Assembly (NCBI GenBank): GCA_045863475.1
Contig: BTUR01000001.1
Span: forward strand, 184,978 to 248,977
DNA from: Candidatus Campbellbacteria bacterium
GTDB taxonomy: Bacteria; Patescibacteriota; Minisyncoccia; Phycocordibacterales; EsbW-18
DNA: 64,000 nucleotides
Reading direction: 5' to 3'
Of the stretch, positions 1-63,391 are shown piece by piece (the first letter of the stretch is position 1; every line of letters starts with the position of its first letter). A model generated the notes under the pieces. The model worked only from the letters and a program-made list of their open reading frames with translations. It had not been told where the DNA came from and ran no database searches. The translations under genes were made by a program, and so were the position numbers.

Positions 1-159
1 ATGAGCACATCCGTTTTGAGATTTGCGCGGTAGTCTGCGCCACGAGCAAACCATCGTGACTGCCAATCACGCAAGATACCGAGGCGGTGTGCAAATGGAT
101 GTACTCGATGTGTCATATAGATAGATAGGGATTGGGGAACGGGGACTAGTGAACAGTGA

Positions 160-555
160 TTAGGAAGATTTCTTTGTCGTTTTCTTTGCCGGAGACTTCT
201 TCGGGGCTGCTGCCTTCGCGTCCGCCTTTTTCACCTCAGACAAAACCAGTGTGATGTTGCTTGAGTGCTTATCGAAACGTGTTGCGCGTCCCTGCGCTCG
301 GGGCAAAATGCGGTGCAGTGTCACGCCCTTGTCGACGCGAACTTCAGCAACCTTAAGCGTCTGTGCCTCCGTCATCCCCTTCTGCTTGGCGTTTGCAAGC
401 GCGCTCTGGAGTGTTTTTTCAAACTGAACCGTCGCTCGTTTCGGCGTTGCGCGCAAAAGCTGGAGTGCCTGCGGGACGCTCTTGCCGCGGATGAGGTTCG
501 CAACGAGGCGGACTTTACGCGGAGATTGCCGGTAGTTTTTGAGGTACACGCGCAT
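160..555 (-). CDS. rplV: 50S ribosomal protein L22, with a Lys/Ala-rich C-terminal tail
   Basis: The translation MRVYLKNYRQSPRKVRLVANLIRGKSV... matches the L22 family; it sits downstream of S19 as in the S10 operon. Confidence 0.9.
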   Translation of the reverse strand: MRVYLKNYRQSPRKVRLVANLIRGKSVPQALQLLRATPKRATVQFEKTLQSALANAKQKGMTEAQTLKVAEVRVDKGVTLHRILPRAQGRATRFDKHSSNITLVLSEVKKADAKAAAPKKSPAKKTTKKSS

Positions 556-2992: not shown

Positions 2993-3021
2993 ATGTCTGA
3001 TTTTATTAGCGAGCGTTAGCG

Positions 3022-3150
3022 AGATTTATAAAATCGGCACCCCGCCCTCTACCCACAAAGACACCTGGAAGTTCAGTCTGAATATTCATGTTTTTTTGTA
3101 TCTGTGATTTTGTCATGGTGTTAGAGGGCGGGGTCTTCGAAAATATACTC
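3022..3150. repeat. MITE-like CCCCGCCCTCT terminal-inverted-repeat element, copy 2
   Basis: CCCCGCCCTCT at 3040-3050 and AGAGGGCGGGG at 3123-3133; flanks match copy 1. Confidence 0.6.
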
Positions 3151-3167
3151 ACTTCGTTCGTTATTTT

Positions 3168-4554: not shown

Positions 4555-4749
4555 TTTTATTTTCTCCTGCGTTCCCGCAGGTTGAAAACTGATTCGCCCT
4601 GCCGGACACTGTGGTCCGGCAGGGCCGGTAGTGTCCAGTGGTCCCTATAGGGACGTGGAACGTAACGGGAGACACTATACACGAGCACTGTTTTGGATGC
4701 AAGACGCCCGCGACAAGTAGTCGCGGGCAAGAGGGGTATCAACAGGCAT

Positions 4750-4971
4750 TCAGAAGGAGTCGAGCGCCTTGAGCCACCCCTTGGGAAGCTCGTTGGGGTT
4801 GGACATCTGCGCACCGCAGTTCGGGCAGAAGCGCGGGTTCCGGTTGCCGTCTTGGTGACGAATCTGTCCCCCGCAGGAGCTGCACTTGAGGATCATTCCC
4901 TGGTACGGATGATAGTAGTCGGCGACCCACTCCGCGGTCTTGACCTGCGCCTGTTCACCAGCCATGTCCAT
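4750..4971 (-). CDS. small zinc-ribbon protein (CxxC...CxxC)
   Basis: The 73-aa product contains KCSSCGG...RFCPNCGAQM; the gene sits in an insertion island between rplC and rpsJ and has high GC. Confidence 0.45.
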   Translation of the reverse strand: MDMAGEQAQVKTAEWVADYYHPYQGMILKCSSCGGQIRHQDGNRNPRFCPNCGAQMSNPNELPKGWLKALDSF

Positions 4972-5122
4972 CTCCTTTCGGGAATCTACCCGCGACTATA
5001 CGCTGGCGGCAATACGAAGTCAAAGCGAGGCGTCCCTTAGGGACGATTGATGGCACTATTGCCACCGTGCACACATAAGAGTAAGGTGGCGAAAGAGTTG
5101 TTCCAACAAAAGGAGAACGGAC

Positions 5123-5773
5123 ATGCGGAAAGACAGGTTTCTCGATTTTCTCGGTGGAGCTGCGTTTTTCGGAGGGATATTCCTGAGTGCCTGGCACCAC
5201 GCCGCGTACCCTGGCCCTGTCACTTTCTGGTGGGGACTCATGCACGTGCCCTTGGTGGCTCTGTGGGTTTTTGGTCTTCGGAGGCTTTTCCACATCCTGA
5301 TGGGACCAAGTGTGGATGAGCTCGAGGCCGAAGACCGTCAGGCACGGGCAGGGAAATCCACCCCCGCCACGCTTGTGTCGGTCGTCGTTGTCGCGCTGCT
5401 CAGTGCCCCTGCGCTTGCGCAGGAAATCCCGAAGACGGACACTCCGCTGGTTTTCAAGTCAGTCGTGCGCGACGTCAACGTCAGAGAGTTCGTCCTCTCC
5501 CCGGAGGAGGAGGTTCGTTTCTTCAAGAGCAATGTGACACGACTGGAGCGAGAGGTCGTGGTCGCCGTCCTCCAGACGCGCATGAGCATGGAGACCGAAG
5601 AAGACGGGAGTATTGTCGCCCTGCTTCTTCGAGTTAAGACGGAAACCGCCTGTTACGGGTTCTGTTTCGAGCCCGAGGTACTGGAGCCGCCATCCTGCGT
5701 CGTTCCACTGGAGATGCCGAAGGCAACCGCCGCTGTCCCCGCAAGGGACGGCGGTTTTTTCATACAAAAGTAA
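5123..5773 (+). CDS. hypothetical membrane/secreted protein
   Basis: 216-aa ORF with N-terminal hydrophobic segments; terminator hairpin at 5726-5762. Confidence 0.35.
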   Translation: MRKDRFLDFLGGAAFFGGIFLSAWHHAAYPGPVTFWWGLMHVPLVALWVFGLRRLFHILMGPSVDELEAEDRQARAGKSTPATLVSVVVVALLSAPALAQEIPKTDTPLVFKSVVRDVNVREFVLSPEEEVRFFKSNVTRLEREVVVAVLQTRMSMETEEDGSIVALLLRVKTETACYGFCFEPEVLEPPSCVVPLEMPKATAAVPARDGGFFIQK

Positions 5774-10977: not shown

Positions 10978-11010
10978 GTTTCTGTTCCCTGTCGTCTGTT
11001 CCCTGTTCCC
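10978..11010. repeat. GGGAACAGGGAAC motif cluster (reverse complement on + strand) directly 3' of a TAG stop
   Basis: TGTTCCCTG at 10983-10991 and GTTCCCTGTTCCC at 10998-11010. In gene orientation the stop reads TAG AGCCAGGGAACAGGGAACAG. Confidence 0.5.
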
Positions 11011-11015
11011 TGGCT

Positions 11016-11711: not shown

Positions 11712-11934
11712 AGATTAGTTAGAATATAGTTCGAATTCGTTTTTTAATGTTGTTTTCAGGGTTTTTCCCCGAAAACATGCCCGAAGGCGCTATTTCGACT
11801 TTTAATGTCTTTAATGATAGCAACGGAGCAGGATGTCCTTTAACCCCCTTGTGGATAACCCTTCGTTCGCCTGAATCGCCCAAAAAGCGCGCGTCTCCGC
11901 CTGCTGGCGGAGCGCTCACTCTCGGGCTCTCGCC

Positions 11935-12066
11935 CTCCGAGAGTCTTTTTGCGCGACAGGCTCTCTGCGTGCGGGAAATAAGCTCGTTCCGTACGCAGGG
12001 AATACAAAATACGAGAGTCTTTTTGTGCGACAGGCTCTCTGCGCACGGGAAATAAGCTCGTTGCGC
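11935..12066. repeat. tandem direct repeat (2 copies of about 60 nt) followed by a perfect hairpin
   Basis: GAGTCTTTTTG(C/T)GCGACAGGCTCTCTGCG(T/C)(G/A)CGGGAAATAAGCTCGTT occurs twice; CCCCGCAGTGACCAAAGTCACTGCGGGG lies at 12068-12096. Confidence 0.5.
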
Positions 12067-12128
12067 ACCGCCCCGCAGTGACCAAAGTCACTGCGGGGCG
12101 TGTTGAGGTGAAGAAAAAATGAAGTACC

Positions 12129-12686
12129 CTACAATCCGAGTTTGTTGACGATGTTGCGGTGCGGATAGTCAAACACATCGCGCACGAGTCGGTCGTTCAT
12201 ATCCATGCGGTATCTGAAGTCCTTTGTGGAAAGCGTAACGTAGCGAATTTCCGTACCGCAGTCAGACTCAATACCTGCAATCGCGCGCTTGAGCGCCCGC
12301 TCGTTGATTCGGTCCCCGACGATGAGAATGTCTGTACGCGTGTCAAAGTCACCGTTCATGAAAATACCCGATGCCGATATAAGTTTTATGGTTCCTGTAC
12401 GCGCAACGCGCTCTTCAATATCAACATCCACAAGCATGTTGCCCAATAAAAGTTCACGCAACGAAACCATGTGAGGAAACGAAGCATCGAGTGTCCAGCC
12501 CTTAGCTTTTTTCTTCGCAAATCCGGCAGATTTCAGCCACGAGAGCGGACCCGTCAGTGTGCGTGCAGGAACGTGGAGGCGTTCAGAAAGTGTTTTCGGC
12601 ATAAAGACGCCGTCCGGGTGAAATAGAAAAAAACGCATCAATCGCACGAGCGTCGCATCCCCAAACAGTTTTGCCAGCAAATCCAT
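12129..12686 (-). CDS. hypothetical protein with a possible N-terminal winged-helix
   Basis: 185-aa ORF; N-terminus LVRLMRFFLFHPDGVFMPKTLSERLHVPARTL resembles wHTH regulators; C-terminal domain unknown. Confidence 0.4.
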   Translation of the reverse strand: MDLLAKLFGDATLVRLMRFFLFHPDGVFMPKTLSERLHVPARTLTGPLSWLKSAGFAKKKAKGWTLDASFPHMVSLRELLLGNMLVDVDIEERVARTGTIKLISASGIFMNGDFDTRTDILIVGDRINERALKRAIAGIESDCGTEIRYVTLSTKDFRYRMDMNDRLVRDVFDYPHRNIVNKLGL

Positions 12687-12878
12687 CCCGATAGTGGCAG
12701 GTCGCGGTCGTTGTAAACTTCCGAAACCAGCAAATTAAGTTTTAACAAAAATACAGCTCACCCCACGGAATCCGGAAAGCGACCGCGGTCACTATCGGGA
12801 TCCATGTCTAGATTATAGACGCATTTCTTCATAAAACAAAAACGCCCCCGTGGGGGTGTTTTTGTAATTGCTTGGATA

Positions 12879-16376: not shown

Positions 16377-16392
16377 CTGTTCCCTGTTCCCT
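16377..16392. repeat. GGGAACAGGGAAC motif (reverse complement) directly after a TAG stop
   Basis: CTGTTCCCTGTTCCCT; in gene orientation the stop reads TAG TTAGGGAACAGGGAACAG. Confidence 0.5.
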
Positions 16393-20245: not shown

Positions 20246-20469
20246 ATATAAATGTATTAGTGAATAGTGAGAAGAGGCGACGTGCCTTGTCCCCCAATAG
20301 TACGTTCTCTGATACGCGGGAACAATAAATCGTGTTGATAACAACGGCACACGCACGACATTTGACACCACCGAGTTCCACGTATATACTCACCTCATTA
20401 ATACTGTGCTGATTGGGTGCTGCGCCAGAAACGGACGCGGCTCTTTTAATTAAAAACAAGGAGTGAAGC

Positions 20470-20600
20470 GACTATGTTTTTATTAACCCCGCCCTCTGTG
20501 CTCTCAGGACATGCCCTAGAGAGAAGGGTGCCGAGAAAGAAAACATCGCGACAACCACACAATTAAAAACGTAGAGGGCGGGGTGAGATTTATAAAACTC
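20470..20600. repeat. MITE-like CCCCGCCCTCT terminal-inverted-repeat element, copy 3
   Basis: CCCCGCCCTCT at 20487-20497 and AGAGGGCGGGG at 20573-20583, flanked by GATTTATAAAACTCG; immediately upstream of nusA. Confidence 0.6.
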
Positions 20601-20624
20601 GCTTCGCTCATTAAATAAATCATC

Positions 20625-37073: not shown

Positions 37074-37100
37074 CCCCTCACACGAGGGGTTTTATTTTTT
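37074..37100. terminator. bidirectional rho-independent terminator
   Basis: CCCCTCACACGAGGGG with an A-run on one side and a T-run on the other; serves the ncRNA on + and the Xer gene on -. Confidence 0.6.
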
Positions 37101-38000
37101 CCCGTGAAAGTTTTTATGCACGTCGCGCAGGTGTTTGTCGGTGACGTGCGTGTAAATCTGCGTCGTCGTGATGTTCGCGTGACCTAAGAGCGCCTGCACC
37201 GAACGCAGATCCGCGCCGTTTTCCAGCAAGTCGGTGGCAAACGAGTGACGCACGACGTGCGGTGTTACTTTTTTTGAAATACCCGCTTTCACGGCGTACC
37301 GTTTCACGAGGCGTTCGACAGAACGTGCAGATAACCGCAAATCTGAACGGCTTTTTGAGGACGGCCCCGCCTGTACAAACATCGCATCATCAAGATCGGC
37401 ACGCTTTGCAAGATAACTTTCAACCGCGGCGCGTGCGGTGGGGGAGACAAACACGACACGCACCTTATCTCCCTTGCCACGAATGGAGAATTCTCCGCGC
37501 GAAAGATCAATATCGCGCGGCAACGACACGAGTTCAGAAACGCGCATGCCGGTGGAGAACAAGAGTGCAAGAATCGCGCGGTCGCGCAGGGCAGTCAGTG
37601 AGTCGCCCTCGGGTGCACGCATGAGACGTGCAAGTTCTGAGGACGTAATGAGATCCAAATCGCGGTCACCGACTTTCGCAAGTTCAATCGCCTCCGGCTG
37701 AAGACTCTCTACGCCGCGTTTGCGCAAAAATTTCAGAAATGCGCGCAGTGCGATGAGATAGTAGTTCTGCGTTTTCTTCTTCAGCGTCTCGCCGCTTTTT
37801 CCTCCGGCATCCTGACGGTTCAGCCACAGGCGGAACTCACGCACCACCGTCTCAGTGATGTCCTTCGGTTTCGAGACTTTGGAGAAGGTGATGAAGCGGG
37901 AGAGGTACCGGTCGTAATTTTCAACCGTCTTCAGCGAGCGGCCGCGCTCGATTTCAAGATACTCGAGGAATTCGCGCTTGAGTGTTTCAACATCTTTCAT
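37092..38000 (-). CDS. xerC: tyrosine recombinase, XerC/XerD family
   Basis: N-terminal SAM-like domain (LEYLEIERGRSLKTVENYDRYL) and the catalytic region ...HVVRHSFATDLLENGADLRSVQALLGHANITTTQIYTHV with R...HxxR...Y. Confidence 0.85.
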   Translation of the reverse strand: MKDVETLKREFLEYLEIERGRSLKTVENYDRYLSRFITFSKVSKPKDITETVVREFRLWLNRQDAGGKSGETLKKKTQNYYLIALRAFLKFLRKRGVESLQPEAIELAKVGDRDLDLITSSELARLMRAPEGDSLTALRDRAILALLFSTGMRVSELVSLPRDIDLSRGEFSIRGKGDKVRVVFVSPTARAAVESYLAKRADLDDAMFVQAGPSSKSRSDLRLSARSVERLVKRYAVKAGISKKVTPHVVRHSFATDLLENGADLRSVQALLGHANITTTQIYTHVTDKHLRDVHKNFHGKK

Positions 38001-43262: not shown

Positions 43263-43328
43263 GTAGTTTTTTCATCCACTAACTTTTTTGTCGCAACATT
43301 TTTTATCCGCTATGCTGTACCTATGAGT

Positions 43329-43446
43329 CCCGTTAGAAGCCACGGTCGTAACAAACGGGAATCGAAAACTTTGATGAAATACTATTACGCAAAAGTAATC
43401 ACACAGGTTTACTGGCGGTCGTTGACCGCGACCTGCTTCTAACGGG
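43329..43446 (+). promoter_or_regulatory. conserved cis-regulatory element, copy A; ends exactly at an ATG
   Basis: CCCGTTAGAAGCCACGGTCG...core TTGATGAAATACTATTACGCAAAAGTAATCACACAGG...CGACCGCGACCTGCTTCTAACGGG|ATG. The 20-bp termini are inverted repeats. Copy B lies at 59760-59878. Confidence 0.55.
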
Positions 43447-45084
43447 ATGAGCGATACACCACTTCCGGGGTACAGCGGCATGCCGCCGGAGCCGTCACCA
43501 AAAGACGGCTCGGTTCCGCCGAGTACGGCTCCACAACTGGCACCGACGTTTGGTCTCCCGCCAGAGACACCGATTATGCCGGGAACTGTTGACCATCACA
43601 TTGAGCCGTCCGCACCCGTGCAACCGACCCCAGCTGCGGCGCCCGCTTCTGAACCCTTGCAGTCAAAACCGCAACCAATCCCTGGCGTCATCATGCCGCA
43701 ACACACCACACCCCAAACACCGACGCCTGCACCAGCAGCAACTCCTGCTCCCACACCCGCGGCTCCAACCGTTCCCAAAATTCCGCTAGTAGCCATCCCG
43801 CAACAAAAACCACCCGCCAGAACGAGCATGTATGACGCGGACGTCCGTGGTGTCGCGGGCGCTTCACCGAAAGATTACGGCATCGTCGGCCCTACCAACC
43901 GCACGAGTACACCTCCATCGCGACCCCAAACAATCCCGCAGGAACCTGCCCGTCTCTCGGCACAAGACGCGCTGTATCAAAGCGCTCTGGGAAAACCGCT
44001 TGAAGGTCCCGTCATTCCTTCCACACGGCCGCAACTCCCGCCGACACCTCCGTCTCCGGTTGCAATGTCCCCGGTTCCCGCACCGACACCTGCAGAAACG
44101 GCAAACGAAATGGCACGGCGCACCGCCATTCGCACACTTGAAGGCGACGTCGCATCAACCATCGCAAAGAATCAACTCACCGTCGGCGGCATTGCACTCG
44201 CACAACAAAAAAAGATGGCGGAAGAAGCCATCAGCAGCGTTTCGGAAGAAAAGAAATTCTCGTGGTGGGCAGTGTCCGGTATCATCCTTGCACTCTTAGG
44301 TGCGGGTATCGTCACCGTTGCATACCTCATGCAACTTAACGCACCGGAACCGAATGAACCGGTGCTCACAACGCAAGACGCGCTCATTCCCGCCGTGCCC
44401 GAAGCGACACTCGACATCACCGACATGACGCGCACGTCCATCCTGCGCGCACTCTCTGAACTCTCCGGACAATACGCATCGCGTCCGGGTATCTCACTGG
44501 TACGTCTCATCTCATACCGCGAAGAAATTGTTGAATCAGAAACCGTGCGCGTGCAGGCGGATGTATCCGCAGAACAATTCTTCACGCAAATCTCCGCACA
44601 TGCACCGAGCCGGCTTATCCGCGCACTCGGAAAACAAACCTACTTCGGCATCACAACCGTTGAAGGGCGCGCGCTGCCGTTCCTCGCGTTTGAAACGACC
44701 TCATACGACTCGTCATTTGCGGGCATGCTTGAATGGGAGCAGTTCCTTCTCGCCGATTTGCCGTTTCTCGCGTACACACCGGCACTCATTCCCACACCGG
44801 AGCCGACAACAAGCACGACAACGGCAACAAGCACACCGGTCTCGACAACGACACCAGCAACGACAACGCCCGCCGCACCGAGTACGGGAGTTCCTGTCGT
44901 GGAGATTCCCGTATTCGTTGACATCGTCGTAAAAAATCACGACGCGCGCGCGGTGAAGAATCAGGACGGTTCCGTAAGATTCCTCTACGCATTCCCGACA
45001 CCGACATTCCTACTTATCGCGCAGAATGAGGTCGTACTCGGAGCCCTCATCGACCACCTCAACACGGCGCGATTTACCCGGTAG
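43447..45084 (+). CDS. Pro/Thr-rich membrane protein (N-terminal proline-rich region, one TM helix, C-terminal globular domain)
   Basis: 545 aa; about 250 aa of P/T/A-rich low complexity; TM segment WWAVSGIILALLGAGIVTVAYLM; C-terminal domain of unknown function. Confidence 0.5.
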   Translation: MSDTPLPGYSGMPPEPSPKDGSVPPSTAPQLAPTFGLPPETPIMPGTVDHHIEPSAPVQPTPAAAPASEPLQSKPQPIPGVIMPQHTTPQTPTPAPAATPAPTPAAPTVPKIPLVAIPQQKPPARTSMYDADVRGVAGASPKDYGIVGPTNRTSTPPSRPQTIPQEPARLSAQDALYQSALGKPLEGPVIPSTRPQLPPTPPSPVAMSPVPAPTPAETANEMARRTAIRTLEGDVASTIAKNQLTVGGIALAQQKKMAEEAISSVSEEKKFSWWAVSGIILALLGAGIVTVAYLMQLNAPEPNEPVLTTQDALIPAVPEATLDITDMTRTSILRALSELSGQYASRPGISLVRLISYREEIVESETVRVQADVSAEQFFTQISAHAPSRLIRALGKQTYFGITTVEGRALPFLAFETTSYDSSFAGMLEWEQFLLADLPFLAYTPALIPTPEPTTSTTTATSTPVSTTTPATTTPAAPSTGVPVVEIPVFVDIVVKNHDARAVKNQDGSVRFLYAFPTPTFLLIAQNEVVLGALIDHLNTARFTR

Positions 45085-50188: not shown

Positions 50189-52114
50189 ATGTCACACCTC
50201 GACGGTCTTAATCCGGCACAAAAAAGAGCAGTGGAGCATATGAGCGGTCCGCTTTTGATTATCGCCGGCGCCGGAACGGGTAAAACGCGCGTCATCACAC
50301 ATCGCATCCTCAATCTCATCAACGCAGGTGTCCTGCCGGAGAAAATTCTTGCCATCACATTCACCAATAAAGCCGCCGGCGAGATGCGCGAGCGCGTTTT
50401 TAAACTCCTGCCGCCGGGAAGTCCCGCGCCGTTCATCGGCACGTTTCATGCGCTTGGCGTGAAAATCCTCCGGGAAAATCACCGTCTCCTCAACATTCCG
50501 AAGTTTTTCTCGATTTTCGACCGCGACGATTCAATTTCTACGATTAAGCGCATACTCCGCGACCTCGGACTAGACCCAAAACAGCATTCGCCCTCCGCGT
50601 TCCTCTCCGTTATTTCAAAAAATAAAAACGAAGCGCGTCCGCTCTCTGAATTCCGTGAGAAAGCGAACACGCTGTTTGAACGCATGACGGTTCCCGTGTG
50701 GGAGCGGTACAGCGAAGCACTCGCTCAGGAAAAAGCATTCGACTTTGACGATCTTTTACTTGCAACACTCTCGCTTTTCAAAAAGTATCCCGACATTTTG
50801 CGGGAGTATCAAAACCGCTGGTCGCACATCCACGTTGATGAGTACCAAGACACGAACACCGTGCAGTACGAACTCACACAACTCCTCTCCGGTGCGCACA
50901 AAAATATCTGCGTGGTCGGTGACCACGATCAGTGCATCTACACATGGCGCTCAGCCGACATGCGCAACCTCTCACGCTTTGAAGAAGATTTCCGTGACGT
51001 CACGGTTGTGACACTCGAAGAAAATTACCGCTCAACACAAACCATCCTCACCGCCGCAAACCGCGCCATTTCGCAAAACGAAATGCGCAAAGAAAAAAAT
51101 CTGTTCACCAGCGGGTCGGAAGGGGAGAAAATTGAGCTGTACACCGCCGCATCTGAGACCGATGAAGCACAATGGGTGGCGTCACGCGCACAGGAACTCA
51201 TTGACGCAGGTGTTCCGGAAAATGAAATTGCCGTGTTGTTCCGCGCAAACTTCCAATCACGCGCGCTTGAAGAGGCGTTTCTCAACGCGCGTGTTTCGTA
51301 TCAAGTGCTCGGCACACGGTTCTTTGAACGCCGTGAAGTAAAAGACGTGCTCTCATACATCGTCGCGGCGCTTAATCCCGACAACACAACCGCACTAGCA
51401 CGCATCATCAATGTCCCTGCGCGCGGCATCGGAAAAACAACACTTCTCAAAATATTTTCCGGGCAAGAGCACCTGCTCCCCCCAAAAATGAAAGAGAAAG
51501 TGACCGCATTTCGAACTCTTCTGTCGCGCATCGCCGACTTCTCGCACGCACACAAGCCGTCTGATGTCGTGAAATTCGTCGTGAAAGAAAGCGGTATCGA
51601 GCACGAACTCGCACACGGCACCGACGACGAACACGAGCGCCTTGGCAACATCCGTGAATTGGCAACGCTTGCCGTGCGCTACGACGCACTGCCCGCAGAC
51701 GAAGGCCTGCATACGTTTTTGGAAACCGCACTCCTAGCCGGTGACCAGGATTCACTGAAAAACGACGAGGCCTCGGTAAAACTTATGACCATTCACGCGG
51801 CAAAAGGTTTAGAGTTTGCGCACGTGTTTATTACGGGACTTGAAGAAGGATTGTTCCCCGATGAGCGCAGTACTCTGCGCGAAACACCGGAAGAGCGCGA
51901 GGAAGAGCGCCGGCTCTTCTATGTCGCGCTCACCCGCGCAAAGAAACAAGCACACCTCTCGCACGCCCTCATGCGCACCATCTTCGGTACGCCATCAATG
52001 AACGTTCCGTCGCAATTCATCACCGAACTCGACGCCGAGCTTGTGCGCGACGTTACGCCGCAGGATTCGTGGCGACCCGGAAGCGGAAAGGGGCTGCTTG
52101 ATATTGAGTTTTAG
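50189..52114 (+). CDS. pcrA: ATP-dependent DNA helicase, UvrD/PcrA family
   Basis: LNPAQKRAVEHMSGPLLIIAGAGTGKTRVITHRI, DEYQDTN, ...ATLAVRYDAL...MTIHAAKGLEF... are superfamily 1 helicase motifs. Confidence 0.85.
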   Translation: MSHLDGLNPAQKRAVEHMSGPLLIIAGAGTGKTRVITHRILNLINAGVLPEKILAITFTNKAAGEMRERVFKLLPPGSPAPFIGTFHALGVKILRENHRLLNIPKFFSIFDRDDSISTIKRILRDLGLDPKQHSPSAFLSVISKNKNEARPLSEFREKANTLFERMTVPVWERYSEALAQEKAFDFDDLLLATLSLFKKYPDILREYQNRWSHIHVDEYQDTNTVQYELTQLLSGAHKNICVVGDHDQCIYTWRSADMRNLSRFEEDFRDVTVVTLEENYRSTQTILTAANRAISQNEMRKEKNLFTSGSEGEKIELYTAASETDEAQWVASRAQELIDAGVPENEIAVLFRANFQSRALEEAFLNARVSYQVLGTRFFERREVKDVLSYIVAALNPDNTTALARIINVPARGIGKTTLLKIFSGQEHLLPPKMKEKVTAFRTLLSRIADFSHAHKPSDVVKFVVKESGIEHELAHGTDDEHERLGNIRELATLAVRYDALPADEGLHTFLETALLAGDQDSLKNDEASVKLMTIHAAKGLEFAHVFITGLEEGLFPDERSTLRETPEEREEERRLFYVALTRAKKQAHLSHALMRTIFGTPSMNVPSQFITELDAELVRDVTPQDSWRPGSGKGLLDIEF

Positions 52115-52200
52115 GGAACAGGGAACAGATGACGGGGAACAGGAGCGAGAAAGGAAACCTGCTATCATATTCCTAATCACCGTTCCCCGTTCCCCGTACC
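52114..52200. repeat. GGGAACAGGGAAC motif in inverted-repeat configuration between pcrA and rsmA
   Basis: TAG|GGAACAGGGAACAGATGACGGGGAACAGG at 52114-52143, and CCGTTCCCCGTTCCCCG (reverse complement) at 52181-52197. Confidence 0.5.
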
Positions 52201-52208
52201 CTACTCTC

Positions 52209-59098: not shown

Positions 59099-59734
59099 AT
59101 GATGAACCCGGAAATACAACAATTGATAAACAAACAGGTTGGGGCTATGCCACCGAAGGTGCGCGAGGCGTTTTTGCACATTGATGCATCAAAATATATC
59201 GGCACCTTGGCCAAGAAACACGACCTTCGCACGGATCAGGCCGGTGTCCTCGAAAACGAGATAATGATTATTATGCTGGGCCTCGAAAACCCACGCACAT
59301 TCATGAATAACCTGACACAGAAGGGAAATATTTCTCGGGATACCGCAGCCGCTATCGTAGAAGATATCAACCGGGATGTGTTCGATAAAATTCGTCACGA
59401 CCTTGCAACTTTTCTTGAACAGAGTGAAAAACAGTATGGCCCTGGAGAGCCGGAAAAAACAGATTCGCCCGCTCCTGCTGTTATTATGCCCCAGCCGCAA
59501 ACAGCCCCTACAACACCTGTCGCACCTGTTATCACCCCCGCGGCACCGACATCTCCAACAGCACCAGCGCAGGGAAGTGGTGCGCGCACACTCAACACCG
59601 ACTTTGCAAAAGAGAGAATGGAGCGTCAGTTCCGCATGCCGACTGAAACGAAACAGGTGACCGAAAAGCCGGTTTCCGGGGAAGAGGGGAAAAAGTACCC
59701 GGGCGTTGATCCGTACCGCGAACCGACGAAGTAG
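59099..59734 (+). CDS. hypothetical protein with a Pro/Thr-rich linker
   Basis: 211 aa; the stop TAG is followed by TTGGGAACAGGGAACGGTCAT. Confidence 0.4.
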   Translation: MMNPEIQQLINKQVGAMPPKVREAFLHIDASKYIGTLAKKHDLRTDQAGVLENEIMIIMLGLENPRTFMNNLTQKGNISRDTAAAIVEDINRDVFDKIRHDLATFLEQSEKQYGPGEPEKTDSPAPAVIMPQPQTAPTTPVAPVITPAAPTSPTAPAQGSGARTLNTDFAKERMERQFRMPTETKQVTEKPVSGEEGKKYPGVDPYREPTK

Positions 59735-59759
59735 TTGGGAACAGGGAACGGTCATGAAT

Positions 59760-59878
59760 CCCGTTTAGAAGCCGCGGTCGCTACTCTCAGAAATCAACAA
59801 CCATGATAAAACGTTATTACACAAACATAATTTCGCAGGTTCAGAAGCGGACAGTGACCGCGACCTGCTTCTAACGGG
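59760..59878 (+). promoter_or_regulatory. conserved cis-regulatory element, copy B; ends exactly at an ATG
   Basis: CCCGTTTAGAAGCCGCGGTCGC...core ATGATAAAACGTTATTACACAAACATAATTTCGCAGG...GTGACCGCGACCTGCTTCTAACGGG|ATG. Its 27-nt 3' end is identical to copy A. Confidence 0.55.
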
Positions 59879-60292
59879 ATGAAATTTGAAGTACCGCAGT
59901 TTATCGACGTCGAAGACAAGGTGTTCGGACCGTTCACCTTTAAGCAGTTCGTGTACCTCGCCGGAGGAGCGGGTCTTTCAGTTGTCATCTGGCTTTTTGT
60001 GCCGCGCTTCATCGGCATTTTTCTCATTGCCGCGGTTCTGGGGCTCGCCGTTGCGCTCGCATTCTACAAGGTAAATGAGAAACCGTTCGTGAATTTCCTG
60101 GAATCCATGCTGCGCTTCTTCGTTTCAAAAAAACTCTACATCTGGAAGAAGGAGGCTCGAAAAGTCGAACACAAAACGGCGGCGGAGGCACAGGTAGAGG
60201 GCGTCGTCGTGCCGCGCCTGTCTGACAGCAAGCTTCGTGACCTGGCCTGGAGCCTTGATGTGCACGATTCACTGTACGACGAACAAAAGTAG
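59879..60292 (+). CDS. PrgI/VirB3-like small membrane protein (type IV secretion)
   Basis: MKFEVPQFIDVEDKVFGPFTFKQFVYLAGGAGLSVVIWLF has the VPxxxxxxDKxxGxxTxxQxxYL N-terminus and two TM helices typical of Gram-positive VirB3-like proteins. Confidence 0.45.
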   Translation: MKFEVPQFIDVEDKVFGPFTFKQFVYLAGGAGLSVVIWLFVPRFIGIFLIAAVLGLAVALAFYKVNEKPFVNFLESMLRFFVSKKLYIWKKEARKVEHKTAAEAQVEGVVVPRLSDSKLRDLAWSLDVHDSLYDEQK

Positions 60293-60309
60293 GGAACAGG
60301 GAACGGTCA

Positions 60310-60714
60310 TCAGGGGACAGGAGGAAAGGACTTGCGGCAATACCTAATGATGCCGTTAAGGAGTTTGAGGGTTTTTATCACCCTTTCACAAAGCAGGAAA
60401 AAAGCATCGTCTTGTAAATACCCGACGTCACGGGCCAGGAGAAGCTGGTTTTGCACCTCAACCAAAGAACCTCGTGCAACAAGGTAGAATCGGAGTTTCT
60501 CTTTATGAGACACCCTTCCGTGTGCTTCGGCCACATTAGAGGTCACTGAAACTGCCGCCCGCCGTATTTGGTTTGTTAATCCGAATATTTCATCCCCGGG
60601 AAATTCTTTTGTGCAAAGGTAAATTGCCTTTGCAAGGCCGTGTCCCTCCTTCCAAACCTGTAAATCGGTAAAATCTAGAGCCTTACTCATACCGCCACGG
60701 TACACAAACTGCAT
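60310..60714 (-). CDS. four-helix-bundle protein (the family found in 23S rRNA intervening sequences), bracketed by inverted repeats
   Basis: LDFTDLQVWKEGHGLAKAIYLCTKEFPGDEIFGLTNQIRRAAVSVTSNVAEAHGR...LRFYLVARGSLVEVQNQLLLARDVGYL. Flanked by GGGAACAGGGAACGGTCAT (60292-60310) and its imperfect inverse GTTCACCGTTCCCGGTTCCCAGTTCCC (60737-60763). Confidence 0.7.
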   Translation of the reverse strand: MQFVYRGGMSKALDFTDLQVWKEGHGLAKAIYLCTKEFPGDEIFGLTNQIRRAAVSVTSNVAEAHGRVSHKEKLRFYLVARGSLVEVQNQLLLARDVGYLQDDAFFLLCERVIKTLKLLNGIIRYCRKSFPPVP

Positions 60715-60766
60715 AAAGCCCTCCTAAACCGTTCTGTTCACCGTTCCCGGTTCCCAGTTCCCTAAT

Positions 60767-61444
60767 ATGCGTTACAATGTAACGCATATGGCGCAACAAA
60801 AAGCGCAGAGCGCGCAGGTATTCGTTCCCATCAAAGAGATCCGCAGCGGTGTCGTCATCCTCAAGGACGGTTCCATGCGATCCGTGCTCCTCTGTAGCTC
60901 GCTGAACTTCGCTCTGAAGTCCGAAGATGAGCAGTCGGCAATCATCATGCAGTTTCAGAACCTCCTCAACTCGGTGGAGTTTCCCATACAGATATTCATT
61001 CAGTCACGCGAGCTGGACATCCGTCCGTACATCGCGCTTTTAGAAAACCAGATAAAAGTGCAGGAGATTAATCTCATCAAAATGCAGACGCGCGAGTATA
61101 TCGAGTTCATCAAAGGGTTCATGGAGAACGTCAATATCATGTCCAAGAGTTTCTTCGTTGTTGTCCCGTATTCTCCGGCGGTTATCTCTGCAGCGAAGGG
61201 AGGTGTGAAGGGCGCACTTGGTGGCATCCTCTCGGGCAAAAAAGAAAACCCTGAGCAGAAAATCATCGCGTTTGAGGAACACCGCAGTCAGCTCGAACAA
61301 CGCATCGCGGTTGTATCACAGAATCTTGCACGCACCGGCATTCGCGCAGTCCAGCTGCAGACGGAGGAACTCGTTGAACTGTACTACAAACTGTTCAACC
61401 CGGGCGACTCCGAAAAACCGATTGCACTCTCCGCAGTTAAATAA
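60767..61444 (+). CDS. VirB4-like protein, N-terminal domain ORF
   Basis: QVFVPIKEIRSGVVILKDGSMRSVL matches the N-terminus of Gram-positive VirB4/TrsE/PrgJ ATPases. It ends at TAA, 3 nt before the ATG of the ATPase ORF. Confidence 0.5.
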   Translation: MRYNVTHMAQQKAQSAQVFVPIKEIRSGVVILKDGSMRSVLLCSSLNFALKSEDEQSAIIMQFQNLLNSVEFPIQIFIQSRELDIRPYIALLENQIKVQEINLIKMQTREYIEFIKGFMENVNIMSKSFFVVVPYSPAVISAAKGGVKGALGGILSGKKENPEQKIIAFEEHRSQLEQRIAVVSQNLARTGIRAVQLQTEELVELYYKLFNPGDSEKPIALSAVK

Positions 61445-61447
61445 TCT

Positions 61448-63391
61448 ATGGGAATTTTTGACTTCATCACAGGAAAAAAGAACAACGACGCACCGCAAAT
61501 CTCCCCGGTGTTGCCAAAAGACATCTACGAAGCCGGTGTGCTTGAGTTGCAAGACATCATTGCGCCGTCGGCACTCAAAGTAACACCGCGCGCACTGAAC
61601 CTTGGTGACAAAGTTGTTCGCACGTTTTTCGCCATTTCGTATCCTCGCTTCCTGCCTGACAACTGGCTCTCGCCGATTATCAACCTCGACAAAGTATTTG
61701 ATATCTCAATTTCCATCATTCCGGTAGACACAGCGCAGGTACTCAAAGAATTTCGAAAACGCGTTGCCGAAGTACAAAGTCAGATTCATATTCGTGAAGA
61801 AAAGGGGCTCGTGCGCGATCCGATGCTTGATGCCGCATACCAAAACCTTGAAAATCTCCGCGACCAGCTCCAGCAGGCAACTGAGAAGCTTTTTGACGTC
61901 GGTCTCTACATATCAATCTACGCCGATAAAGAAGAGGACTTGGATAAACTTGAGTCTGAAATCCGCTCACTCCTGGAAAGCCGCCTTATTTACCTCAAAC
62001 CCGCACTCTTCCAACAAGAGCAAGGGTTCCGCAGTGTTCTGCCGATACAGAGCGACGAGCTCGGCGTGCACAGCAAGCTCAACACCTCGCCGCTTTCCTC
62101 ATTCTTCCCGTTTGTGTCATTTGACCTCACGTCCGACAAGGGAATCCTCTACGGCATCAACCGGCACAACGCGGGGCTCATCCTCTTTGACCGTTTCTCC
62201 ATGCCGAACTACAACTCGGTGACCTTCGCTACCTCCGGTGCCGGAAAATCATACGCAACGAAGCTCGAGATTCTGCGCACACTCATGTTTGATACCGACG
62301 TTATTGTGATTGACCCGGAGCGTGAATACGAGCACATGAGTGAAGCGATGGGCGGGCGTTACTTCAACATCTCACTGACAAGCGAACACCACATCAATCC
62401 GTTTGATTTGCCGCCCGTGCGCGAAGACGAAACACCCGCAAACGTTTTGCGCTCACAAATCGTCACCTTGGTGGGACTCTTCCGCATCATGTTCGGCGGA
62501 CTCACCCCTGAAGAAGACGCCATCATTGACCGCGCCATCACCGAGACGTACGCACTCAAAGACATCACCGGCGAGCGTGATTTCTCCGGAACCGAACCGC
62601 CGCTGTTGTCTGACTTTGAACTGGTCCTCGCCGGCATGGAAGGAGGGGAGTCTCTGGTGCAACGACTCACAAAGTACACAAAGGGTACCTGGTCCGGATT
62701 CATCAACATGCCGACGAACGTCGACATCAATAAGAAGTTTATTGTCTTTTCCGTGCGCGACATGGAAGACGAACTCAAGCCGGTTGCGATGTACCTCATC
62801 ACACACTACATCTGGGGCGCGGTACGACGCACGCTGAAAAAACGCCTGCTCGTTGTTGATGAGGCATGGTGGATGATGAAAGAAGAAGACACCGCGTCAC
62901 TTCTCTTCGGATTGGCCAAGCGCGGACGCAAATACTACCTCGGCATCGCAACCATCACCCAAGACGTCGGCGACTTCTTGCGTTCTCCCTACGGACTGCC
63001 GATTATCACAAACTCATCCATCCAGATGCTCTTGAAGCAGTCGCCGTCGGCTATCGATTTGGTGCAACAGACATTCAACCTCACCGACGAGGAGAAGTAT
63101 CTGCTTCTGGAATCAGAACAAGGAGAGGGCATCTTCTTTGCGGGACTCAAGCATGTTGCCATCAAAGTCATCTCGTCATATACGGAAAACCAAATCATCA
63201 CCTCAGATCCATCAGAACTGCTTTCCATTAAAAAATCGCGTGAACAGCTCCGTTCCGCAAAAAGTGACGATGCGGAGCCTCTCCAGGAGAAAATCTATTC
63301 CAACAGAAGGGTTCCGGACGGCGATACCACAGCACCCGTTGCACCCGGAGCAGGAATCGCCGGCAACGTGGAGCTTAGGAACGTAGAATAA
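61448..63391 (+). CDS. virB4: VirB4/TrbE-like type IV secretion ATPase (C-terminal ATPase portion)
   Basis: Walker A TFATSGAGKSYATK, Walker B LLVVDEAWWMM, and the conserved RKY..G.....QD motif (KRGRKYYLGIATITQDVGDF). Confidence 0.85.
   Translation: MGIFDFITGKKNNDAPQISPVLPKDIYEAGVLELQDIIAPSALKVTPRALNLGDKVVRTFFAISYPRFLPDNWLSPIINLDKVFDISISIIPVDTAQVLKEFRKRVAEVQSQIHIREEKGLVRDPMLDAAYQNLENLRDQLQQATEKLFDVGLYISIYADKEEDLDKLESEIRSLLESRLIYLKPALFQQEQGFRSVLPIQSDELGVHSKLNTSPLSSFFPFVSFDLTSDKGILYGINRHNAGLILFDRFSMPNYNSVTFATSGAGKSYATKLEILRTLMFDTDVIVIDPEREYEHMSEAMGGRYFNISLTSEHHINPFDLPPVREDETPANVLRSQIVTLVGLFRIMFGGLTPEEDAIIDRAITETYALKDITGERDFSGTEPPLLSDFELVLAGMEGGESLVQRLTKYTKGTWSGFINMPTNVDINKKFIVFSVRDMEDELKPVAMYLITHYIWGAVRRTLKKRLLVVDEAWWMMKEEDTASLLFGLAKRGRKYYLGIATITQDVGDFLRSPYGLPIITNSSIQMLLKQSPSAIDLVQQTFNLTDEEKYLLLESEQGEGIFFAGLKHVAIKVISSYTENQIITSDPSELLSIKKSREQLRSAKSDDAEPLQEKIYSNRRVPDGDTTAPVAPGAGIAGNVELRNVE

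Follow-up and report, generated by a model that had tools for sequence, protein, structure and literature searches.

The closest described relatives of the element reported here are the intervening sequences (IVS) of 23S rRNA that carry an open reading frame (ORF) for an S23p protein. Such IVS are on record for Leptospira, Coxiella burnetii and Brucella, together with a Xanthomonas-type S23p, and the Coxiella copy comprises 428 nt, with an S23p ORF and a 28-bp terminal inverted-repeat stem that is cut by RNase III (PMC4990558). In bacteria of the candidate phyla radiation (CPR), 23S_rRNA_IVP ORFs have been found in insertions of both 16S and 23S rRNA (PMC11270868). We have analysed a stretch of 64,000 nucleotides from a Candidatus Campbellbacteria bacterium (contig BTUR01000001.1, positions 184,978 to 248,977; hereafter the window), in which a gene for a four-helix-bundle (4HB) protein of this family lies between the PrgI/VirB3-like and VirB4 genes of a type IV secretion system (T4SS)-like cluster. 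In our reading, to which we assign a probability of roughly 70%, positions 60290-60764 represent one copy of a compact selfish gene cassette, built from a 4HB ORF of ~125-135 aa in inverted heptamer arrays; cassettes of this kind are widespread and, it seems, undescribed. The cassette resembles the IVS in its PF05635 ORF, in its size (~470 nt here, 428 nt in Coxiella), in the enclosure of the ORF by a terminal inverted-repeat stem, and in being distributed sporadically, as would be expected if it was acquired horizontally and then maintained by vertical descent. Unlike the IVS, it lies outside rRNA and between protein-coding genes, here antisense to them, and its arms are tandem heptamer arrays, a possible further difference. 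Moreover, the 4HB protein is clearly under selection in our case, while the S23p of Coxiella is, according to the published report, unlikely to be produced in vivo.

The 4HB gene (60310-60714, minus strand) spans 405 nt and encodes 134 aa. It matches PF05635 over model positions 2-106 of 106 (E 6e-33, 113.6 bits at a cutoff of 33.8), TIGR02436 (E 4e-30, 104.2 bits at a cutoff of 24) and, with residues 18-103, the X. campestris pentamer XCC0516 (PDB 2GSC, E 1.3e-16). The left arm of the cassette, GGGAACAGGGAACGGTCAT (60292-60310), consists on the plus strand of the units GGGAACA and GGGAACG followed by GTCAT, and forms a C/U-rich 3' arm on the 4HB mRNA. Its first G is at the same time the last base of the TAG stop codon of the prgI-like gene (60290-60292), and on the inner side complementarity persists as far as about 60323, taking in the tandem 4HB stop codons and the final codons before them. 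The right arm (60731-60764), reading TA, GGGAACT, GGGAACC, GGGAACG, GTGAACA and GAAC on the minus strand, provides the G-rich 5' arm of the same mRNA; the inverted copy within it, at 60734-60764, is composed of GGGAACT, GGGAACC, GGGAACG and GTGAACAG. The arm pairs are 86% complementary over 22 nt and 74% over 31 nt, and 60292-60310 pairs with 60734-60764 in both the minimum free energy and the centroid folds of 60286-60768, on either strand. The core 13-mer GGGAACAGGGAAC occurs 14 times in the window when up to 2 mismatches are allowed, compared to 1.55 +/- 1.31 times in shuffled sequence, and 0 of 100 shuffles reach 14. An initial sequence-only reading of this DNA had described the gene on the opposite strand between the VirB3-like and VirB4 genes, the flanking repeat at 60292-60310 with its inverted copy, and the same 19-mer at 59737-59755; the coordinates and family matches agree with that description, and all of its statements on the repeats hold. 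As the locus is identical in two independent Logan assemblies, it is not an assembly artefact.

The same architecture recurs far beyond the window. We examined 19 4HB genes near T4SS, ATP-synthase and pyruvate:ferredoxin oxidoreductase (POR) genes, 77 from unrelated metagenomes (39-55% identical) and 33 on IMG/VR viral contigs, and found that nearly every one lies within its own inverted period-7 arms, the sequence of which differs from genome to genome. The heptamer is GGGAACN in the window, ACCAACG in locus L004, TACATAA in L057, GAATATA in L042, TAGCTTG in L076 and ATGAATC in L095. Every one of the T4SS, ATP-synthase and POR copies is closely enclosed by arms, which measure 23-60 nt each and usually overlap the start codon on one side and the last codons plus stop on the other. 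Median distances between arm and ORF are 0 nt at the start and -3 nt at the stop, with arm-to-ATG values being approximate, since ORF starts were called mechanically. The two arms proved complementary in all cassettes examined, and arms of one cassette fit each other better than those of different cassettes, with mean duplex energies of -32.6 kcal/mol for own pairs compared to -18.2 kcal/mol for cross pairs, and the own 3' arm is the best partner by duplex energy in 13 of the 19. A control with shuffled arms was uninformative, as these low-complexity sequences yield too wide a null distribution, and the case for the arms therefore rests on the comparisons across cassettes and with control genes. 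In the latter, 4HB genes reach a median ungapped inverted-repeat score of 14, as compared to 6-6.5 for 70-79 PrgI/VirB4 genes. The gapped score in the metagenome sample has a median of 18.5 (n=77), as opposed to 8.0 for 122 control ORFs from the same loci, and scores of at least 13 are reached by 69% of the 4HB genes but by only 4% of the controls (Mann-Whitney p = 7e-16). Heptamer arms are likewise present in two thirds of the copies on viral contigs.

In the metagenome sample, period 7 was found in 35 of 40 5' arms and 39 of 41 3' arms. On the sense strand, the 5' arm contains much G and little C (G 682, C 201), indicating that the arms have a fixed polarity with respect to the ORF. Once rotated, the heptamers yield a loose consensus, A-W-G-W-A-T-T, which is compatible with GGGAACA but only weakly significant (4.49 bits compared to 3.9 +/- 0.19 in shuffles, the maximum of 200 shuffles being 4.52). 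Arrays of a cassette's own heptamer occur 1.54 times per 10 kb in its own locus and 0.25 times in the loci of others, a roughly sixfold difference across 51 cassettes. Among 56 other cassettes whose neighbours are close, 38 share the orientation of both flanking genes and 3 are antisense to both, making the arrangement in the window a rare type. They neighbour housekeeping operon genes. Taking all cassettes together, insertion sites include atpG|atpD, the POR operon, HlyD|MacB and a position beside an acetolactate-synthase-like (ilvB-like) thiamine pyrophosphate enzyme, and further neighbours encode urocanase, MTHFR and an ABC-transporter binding protein.

CPR genomes are rich in diversity-generating retroelements (DGRs), and bAvd, a DGR accessory protein, binds nucleic acid and reverse transcriptase (RT). 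The window 4HB protein and bAvd (PDB 4DWL) belong to a homologous, pentamer-forming four-helix-bundle fold family. It could thus be asked whether the gene is simply the Avd accessory gene of a DGR, given that PF05635 is the Avd family (PMC10053308) and that the closest homologs also match PF22296 (bAvd). However, we detected no RT (RVT) among the ORFs of at least 250 aa in the window, nor among the T4SS neighbours, and a window-wide search returned no template/variable repeat pair, its sole long direct repeats being a 118-nt leader and tRNA genes. Unlike DGR Avd genes, moreover, the window gene has heptamer arms, and stand-alone 4HB genes sit inside housekeeping operons, as the 56 other cassettes illustrate. 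We have accordingly rejected this explanation, whose probability we regard as close to nil.

Intergenic heptamer repeats have been reported repeatedly, in each case with no function or origin assigned to them. In Xanthomonas, GGGAATC forms about 186 arrays with 70 convergent (inverted) pairs, described as 'not associated with mobile elements', while Nostoc contains intergenic arrays of GGGGA(C/T)T (PMC4692102); TAACTGA arrays are known from Beggiatoaceae, cyanobacteria and Bacteroidetes (PMC4679880). These repeats have been treated as simple-sequence repeats or G-quadruplex motifs (PMC4692102, PMC4679880). A term search of these two papers gave no mention of four-helix-bundle, S23 or IVS genes (PMC4692102, PMC4679880), and we found no paper tying heptamer repeats to 4HB, S23 or IVS proteins within an incomplete coverage of the literature, so that an earlier description is possible. 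The window arms have the hallmarks of these repeats, namely tandem 7-nt units, a genome-specific unit sequence and convergent pairs, and share the period and the genome specificity with all of them, the cyanobacterial STRR repeats of Calothrix/Nostoc included. Conversely, the published repeats often abut start or stop codons, as the cassette arms do, and the Xanthomonas arrays frequently form inverted pairs; TAACTGA arrays, in contrast, are mostly direct repeats. In X. campestris and X. citri, a 4HB gene of the XCC0516 type splits accB-accC on the same strand (loci L179, 2425-2872, and L181, 2425-2870), the X. citri ORF seemingly overlapping the accC start. As we had predicted beforehand, this gene is flanked by inverted GGGAATC arrays, with GGGAATCGGGAGTGGAGAATCGGGAATCGG as the 5' arm and CCCATTCCCCATTCTCGACTCCCTATTCCC as the 3' arm. 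Gene-less cassette remnants may account for the unexplained intergenic heptamer repeats of many bacteria.

Within the window, the GGGAAC family shows a dispersal reminiscent of miniature transposable elements with inverted repeats (MITEs), with a single full copy, a single mini copy and solo arms at five sites. The mini cassette (52112-52203), located between a UvrD/PcrA helicase gene and ksgA/rsmA, possesses both arms but no gene; its sequence can be aligned with 45 nt at the left end of the cassette and ~36 nt at the right end, and it keeps an in-frame mini-ORF, M-IAGFLSRSCSPSSVPCSL, which resembles the 4HB start joined to the C-terminus (...IIRYCRKSFPPVP). Solo arms follow the stop codons of several genes. 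The arm GGGAACAGGGAACAGACGACAGGGAACAG (10982-11011, minus strand), a 93% match to the left end of the element at 52113, is situated between the stop of an MscS-like gene and an intrinsic terminator, and GGGAACAGGGAAC recurs at 16379-16391 (minus strand) between the stop of a gene for an 871-aa surface protein and a terminator hairpin. A copy of the left arm, identical in 19 of 19 positions, is found directly behind the stop of the upstream 211-aa gene (59737-59755, plus strand), 555 nt from the arm itself, and the match extends to 23 nt with 22/23 identity. A solo 5'-type arm, TAGGGATTGGGGAACGGGGACTAGTGAACAGTGATTAGGAAG (126-175, plus strand), lies beside rplV in the S10 ribosomal-protein operon. 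In locus L087, a similar mini is inserted upstream of prgI and retains 20/22 nt of the 4HB 3' coding end; L083, a close relative, has nothing in that slot. The other GGGAAC sites of the window are hence pieces of the cassette family, and not as the independent, general intergenic motif that the sequence-only reading had named as an alternative.

One may turn this relationship around and regard the heptamer hairpins as host elements, such as terminators, insulators or regulatory stem-loops made of genome-specific repeats, into whose loops 4HB genes home in the way that some insertion sequences target REP elements; the arms would then be the target. Such a view accommodates the fact that gene-less inverted arrays far outnumber 4HB genes, with one gene against six other arm sites in the window, and with the many arrays and inverted pairs of Xanthomonas (PMC4692102) against the one 4HB locus retrieved there. 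It would also explain why similar-looking arms enclose a GxxExxY/PDDEXK_3 gene in locus L023, which indicates that the arms are not bound to one cargo. Targets of this kind, however, are difficult to reconcile with arms that overlap the ORF's own start and stop codons (medians of 0 and -3 nt) and whose polarity is fixed relative to the ORF. The minis, too, keep an in-frame start together with a C-terminal 4HB remnant, up to the 20/22 nt of the 3' end in L087, and therefore look like internal deletions rather than virgin targets. We thus hold the host-element explanation to be improbable.

As the sequence-only reading had proposed, we compared the window to 80 Patescibacteria loci, collected by a VirB4-C scan of species-representative genomes (72-86% identity) that are all metagenome-assembled genomes or metagenome contigs. 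In the window, the slot is bounded on the left by the PrgI/VirB3-like gene (59879-60292, plus strand; PF12666, E 4.6e-11) and on the right by the gene for a TraC-like VirB4 N-terminal part (virB4N; 60788-61444, plus strand), which starts at the conserved ATG at 60788 (MAQQK...) and not at 60767. In the 70 relatives that have both genes on one strand, the gap between them has a median length of 16.5 nt, in line with the initial statement that a VirB3-like gene normally abuts virB4, and an empty PrgI|VirB4N slot is the rule. A hidden Markov model search of all ORFs in the VirB4 loci recovered 4HB genes in 13-14 other genomes. Three lie in the same slot (L004 in antisense, L057 and L061 in sense orientation), five directly upstream of prgI (L007, L012, L013, L017, L045) and those of six genomes between virB4N and virB4C (L013, L015, L016, L028, L042, L061), with a single case, L076, outside these three slots. 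Similarity between the 4HB proteins is independent of the slot: the window protein is 60% identical to that of an atpG|atpD cassette but only ~33% to the same-slot protein of L004, and the closest relative of the L057 protein belongs to a cassette in a POR operon. This pattern suggests that unrelated 4HB lineages acquired T4SS slots independently in different genomes.

The same slots carry other small genes, namely the GxxExxY/PDDEXK_3 gene of L023 (4700-5250), a GIY-YIG gene in L007 (4760-5030), an RHH/ParD-like gene in L006 (5400-5660) and a MazF-like pseudogene in L024 (4565-5320); the GIY-YIG gene stands alone and the GxxExxY gene is bracketed by inverted ATACGAA-type repeats. Gene-less inverted-repeat minis occupy T4SS slots in L080, L043 and L081. 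The T4SS slots are hence hot spots for small, sporadically distributed genes. A further peculiarity was noticed in L003 and L005, the two closest species outside the cassette-bearing clade, where the prgI-like gene (4680-5230 and 4877-5287, respectively) runs against the strand of the remaining T4SS cluster. As read in L003, inverted heptamer-type repeats (ATGCTAC/ATGCTAT...) lie on both sides of the gene, which suggests that the inversion was mediated by cassette arms.

How old is the copy in the window? Its two closest 4HB homologs, 87% and 84% identical, are found in L083 and L087, whose VirB4-C proteins are 91% identical to that of the window. Both occupy the same slot on the same antisense strand and within the same GGGAAC-type arms, while the next relatives, L003 and L005 (86%), lack the cassette. 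With dS of the flanking genes at about 1 and dN/dS of the 4HB gene at 0.08-0.18, like that of prgI, the insertion is not recent, but old, passed down vertically in at least three lineages and under purifying selection at the protein level. The proposal of a mobile cassette made in the sequence-only reading is thus borne out with respect to cassette behaviour, as seen in the empty slot of most relatives and the unrelated 4HB lineages in the same or adjacent slots, but not if a recent event was meant.

The vertical inheritance in the window, L083 and L087, along with the presence of the GGGAAC motif at other intergenic sites, might also point to an ordinary ancestral gene that was lost in most relatives and is flanked by a general intergenic motif without any cassette behaviour. 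Yet the 4HB genes that L004 and L057 carry in the same slot are only 33-52% identical and have other heptamers, that of L057 in the opposite orientation, and the nearest relatives of both reside in other slots or operons. Arms are furthermore specific to 4HB genes when compared to control genes, and the other GGGAAC sites contain cassette-internal sequence. Far from all relatives carrying a 4HB gene at this position, which the initial reading had considered, most are empty, and simple ancestry with loss appears very unlikely to us.

The window, L083 and L087 share a block of 61 nt (60744-60804) with 100% identity, even though dS of the flanking genes is about 1. Within this block lie the outer arm and the virB4N start, together with a perfect palindrome of 25 bp in which -10-like boxes stand back to back. 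The palindrome, ATATGCGTTACA-A-TGTAACGCATAT (60765-60789), has 12-1-12 symmetry, overlaps the virB4N start and is unique in the window. A sigma-70 promoter scan found TTCCCA-16-TACAAT on the plus strand before virB4N as its sole site, the -10-like TACAAT (60773-60778) lying inside the palindrome, and none for the 4HB gene on the minus strand; from the palindrome we infer that the mirror TACATT, which faces the 4HB gene on that strand, is a -10-like box as well. The 4HB gene has a Shine-Dalgarno sequence, AGGAGG (60720-60725, minus strand), and its orthologs begin where the internal Met9 of the window protein lies. The conserved block suggests a shared divergent promoter/operator, which would probably drive virB4N (as a leaderless mRNA) and the 4HB gene divergently, and the cassette is possibly partly domesticated.

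Alternatively, the 4HB gene might have been domesticated and function as a partner or regulator of the T4SS-like system, located there by function and not by selfish spread. In favour of this stand the purifying selection on the protein, the fully conserved block with its palindrome shared with the virB4N start, and the placement of 16 of the 17 4HB genes from the ~80 VirB4-centred loci in just three slots around prgI, virB4N and virB4C. The last count is biased by the choice of loci via VirB4, so that the enrichment in T4SS slots can be read as a raw count only. Moreover, about 55 of 70 relatives have no 4HB gene there, equally or more similar homologs exist in ATP-synthase, POR, acetyl-CoA carboxylase, efflux and amino-acid operons, and the slots also collect GxxExxY, GIY-YIG, RHH and MazF-like genes, as expected of a permissive hot spot. 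A dedicated role in the T4SS is hence quite unlikely.

The sequence-only reading had further proposed that the cassette split the T4SS operon and might be relevant to the division of VirB4 into two ORFs (60767/60788-61444 and 61448-63391, plus strand). The latter was not borne out. All ~80 Patescibacteria relatives have a two-gene VirB4, with a TraC-like N part of ~220 aa and a C-terminal ATPase of ~600-650 aa, so that its division is ancestral, unrelated to the cassette and no sign of local disruption. In nearly all relatives, a -10-type box (TATAAT, TATACT or TACAAT, often TGATATAAT) lies 7-9 nt before the virB4N ATG and often overlaps the prgI stop codon (PrgI|VirB4N junctions, L003-L082), suggesting that virB4N has its own start and probably a leaderless mRNA. 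The slot would then be a boundary between transcription units and, given this conserved box, its occupation is probably harmless. With the two-gene VirB4 and the separate virB4N start both being ancestral, any suspicion of a disrupted T4SS-like operon or VirB4 is lifted.

Several observations weigh against the selfish-cassette interpretation or restrict it. The overall fold z-scores of the cassette are unremarkable (-1.55 and -2.16 for its two strands), and the non-Watson-Crick positions in the arms show no G:U excess (79 G:U-type, 85 A:C-type), so that a stem selected in the sense RNA is no better supported than one selected in DNA or on both strands. The outer flanks of 19 cassettes bear no consistent target-site duplication; TA flanks are confined to the GGGAAC family, at both ends of three copies, and might just as well represent the final pair of bases in the inverted repeat. 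The window contains no transposase, a Xer-like gene being its only recombinase, and no polymorphic filled/empty pair was found among near-identical strains, for which reasons we infer mobility from phylogenetic distribution alone. None of 40 metagenomic cassettes is adjacent to rRNA, and the analogy to the IVS thus rests on ORF family and architecture, not on location. As the window cassette is of the rare antisense type (3/56), an excision from operon transcripts would apply here only via the symmetry of the stem. Finally, its long retention and the perfectly conserved promoter region mean that this copy may now serve its host.

How such a cassette could be tolerated and spread can be pictured by analogy to the IVS. 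The paired arms would constitute a long basal stem of the cassette, and RNase III would cut this stem and remove the cassette RNA from read-through transcripts, making an insertion into rRNA or operons nearly neutral. Since the start codon lies inside the stem, the latter might at the same time control access to it and thereby gate translation. Arrays that share a heptamer might give rise to new copies by copy-in or by gene conversion with one another, perhaps with help from a nucleic-acid-binding 4HB pentamer, which is a guess. Partly comparable are the Correia/NEMIS MITEs of Neisseria, which are short, inverted-repeat-bounded elements of operon intergenic regions with many gene-less copies, whose hairpins are cut by RNase III in co-transcripts and which can carry promoter elements. 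The cassette family, too, is bounded by inverted repeats, inhabits intergenic regions of operons and has gene-less copies, and the TA at both ends of GGGAAC-family copies is MITE-like, although a TA duplication is not general across cassettes. MITE termini, however, are unique sequences recognised by a transposase, whereas the cassette termini are tandem heptamers, and the full copy encodes a 4HB protein and not a DDE enzyme as behind MITEs. We also considered an integron gene cassette, but discarded it, as the repeats lie on both sides of the ORF, the gene is isolated in a T4SS cluster and no integron integrase is nearby. Rfam returned no match in 59600-60900 even at E <= 1, and tRNAs only for the window as a whole; rRNA is absent from the entire window.

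A selfish cassette of this architecture would explain why small genes annotated as 'four helix bundle protein' or 'S23 ribosomal' split universal operons at prgI|virB4, atpG|atpD, accB|accC and between POR subunits, and it would tie the rRNA intervening sequences to a much larger cassette population outside rRNA. For the intergenic heptamer repeats, known since 1990 without an explanation, it suggests an origin that is concrete and can be tested, and it hints at a function of stand-alone Avd-like proteins outside DGRs. Carried further, one could speculate that the 4HB gene and its inverted heptamer arrays are the autonomous form of an unrecognised class of mobile elements across bacterial phyla, which includes the 23S/16S rRNA 'IVS'; that the Avd-like protein, as a pentamer, recognises the tandem heptamers in single-stranded nucleic acid and helps the cassette to be copied into new intergenic slots; and that the STRR, GGGAATC, Beggiatoaceae and Bacteroidetes heptamer repeats are non-autonomous derivatives or scars. 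We consider this extension possible but doubtful. In Xanthomonas, a genetically tractable system is at hand for the hypotheses on RNA processing and mobility.

Some further features of the window deserve mention. Upstream of the prgI-like gene lies one of three copies of a structured leader of ~125 nt (59756-59882 and 43324-43450, plus strand; 12683-12806, minus strand), each of which stops exactly at the ATG of a gene, namely the prgI-like gene, a 545-aa ORF and a 185-aa ORF, the latter two having no match in Pfam. A 22-bp stem joins the 5' end of the leader to the start-codon region, three of its pairs show compensatory changes, and the loop contains a promoter-like site (59803-59831). The repeated segment may serve as a common regulatory leader, or it may be a mobile element that carries a promoter. 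The Xer-type tyrosine recombinase gene (37092-38000, minus strand) lies 22 kb from the cassette, with no sign of a link between them. Two 57-nt direct repeats, 91% identical and 74 nt apart (11938-11994 and 12012-12068), are found in or beside a 112-aa ORF (11840-12178, minus strand). Another dispersed repeat family of ~40 nt, ending in ACCCCGCCCTCT, is represented at 913-955, 3011-3052, 3123-3167, 20453-20497 and 20571-20615; it occurs in both orientations near ribosomal-protein genes and nusA, and includes an inverted pair 75 nt apart at 20458-20612.

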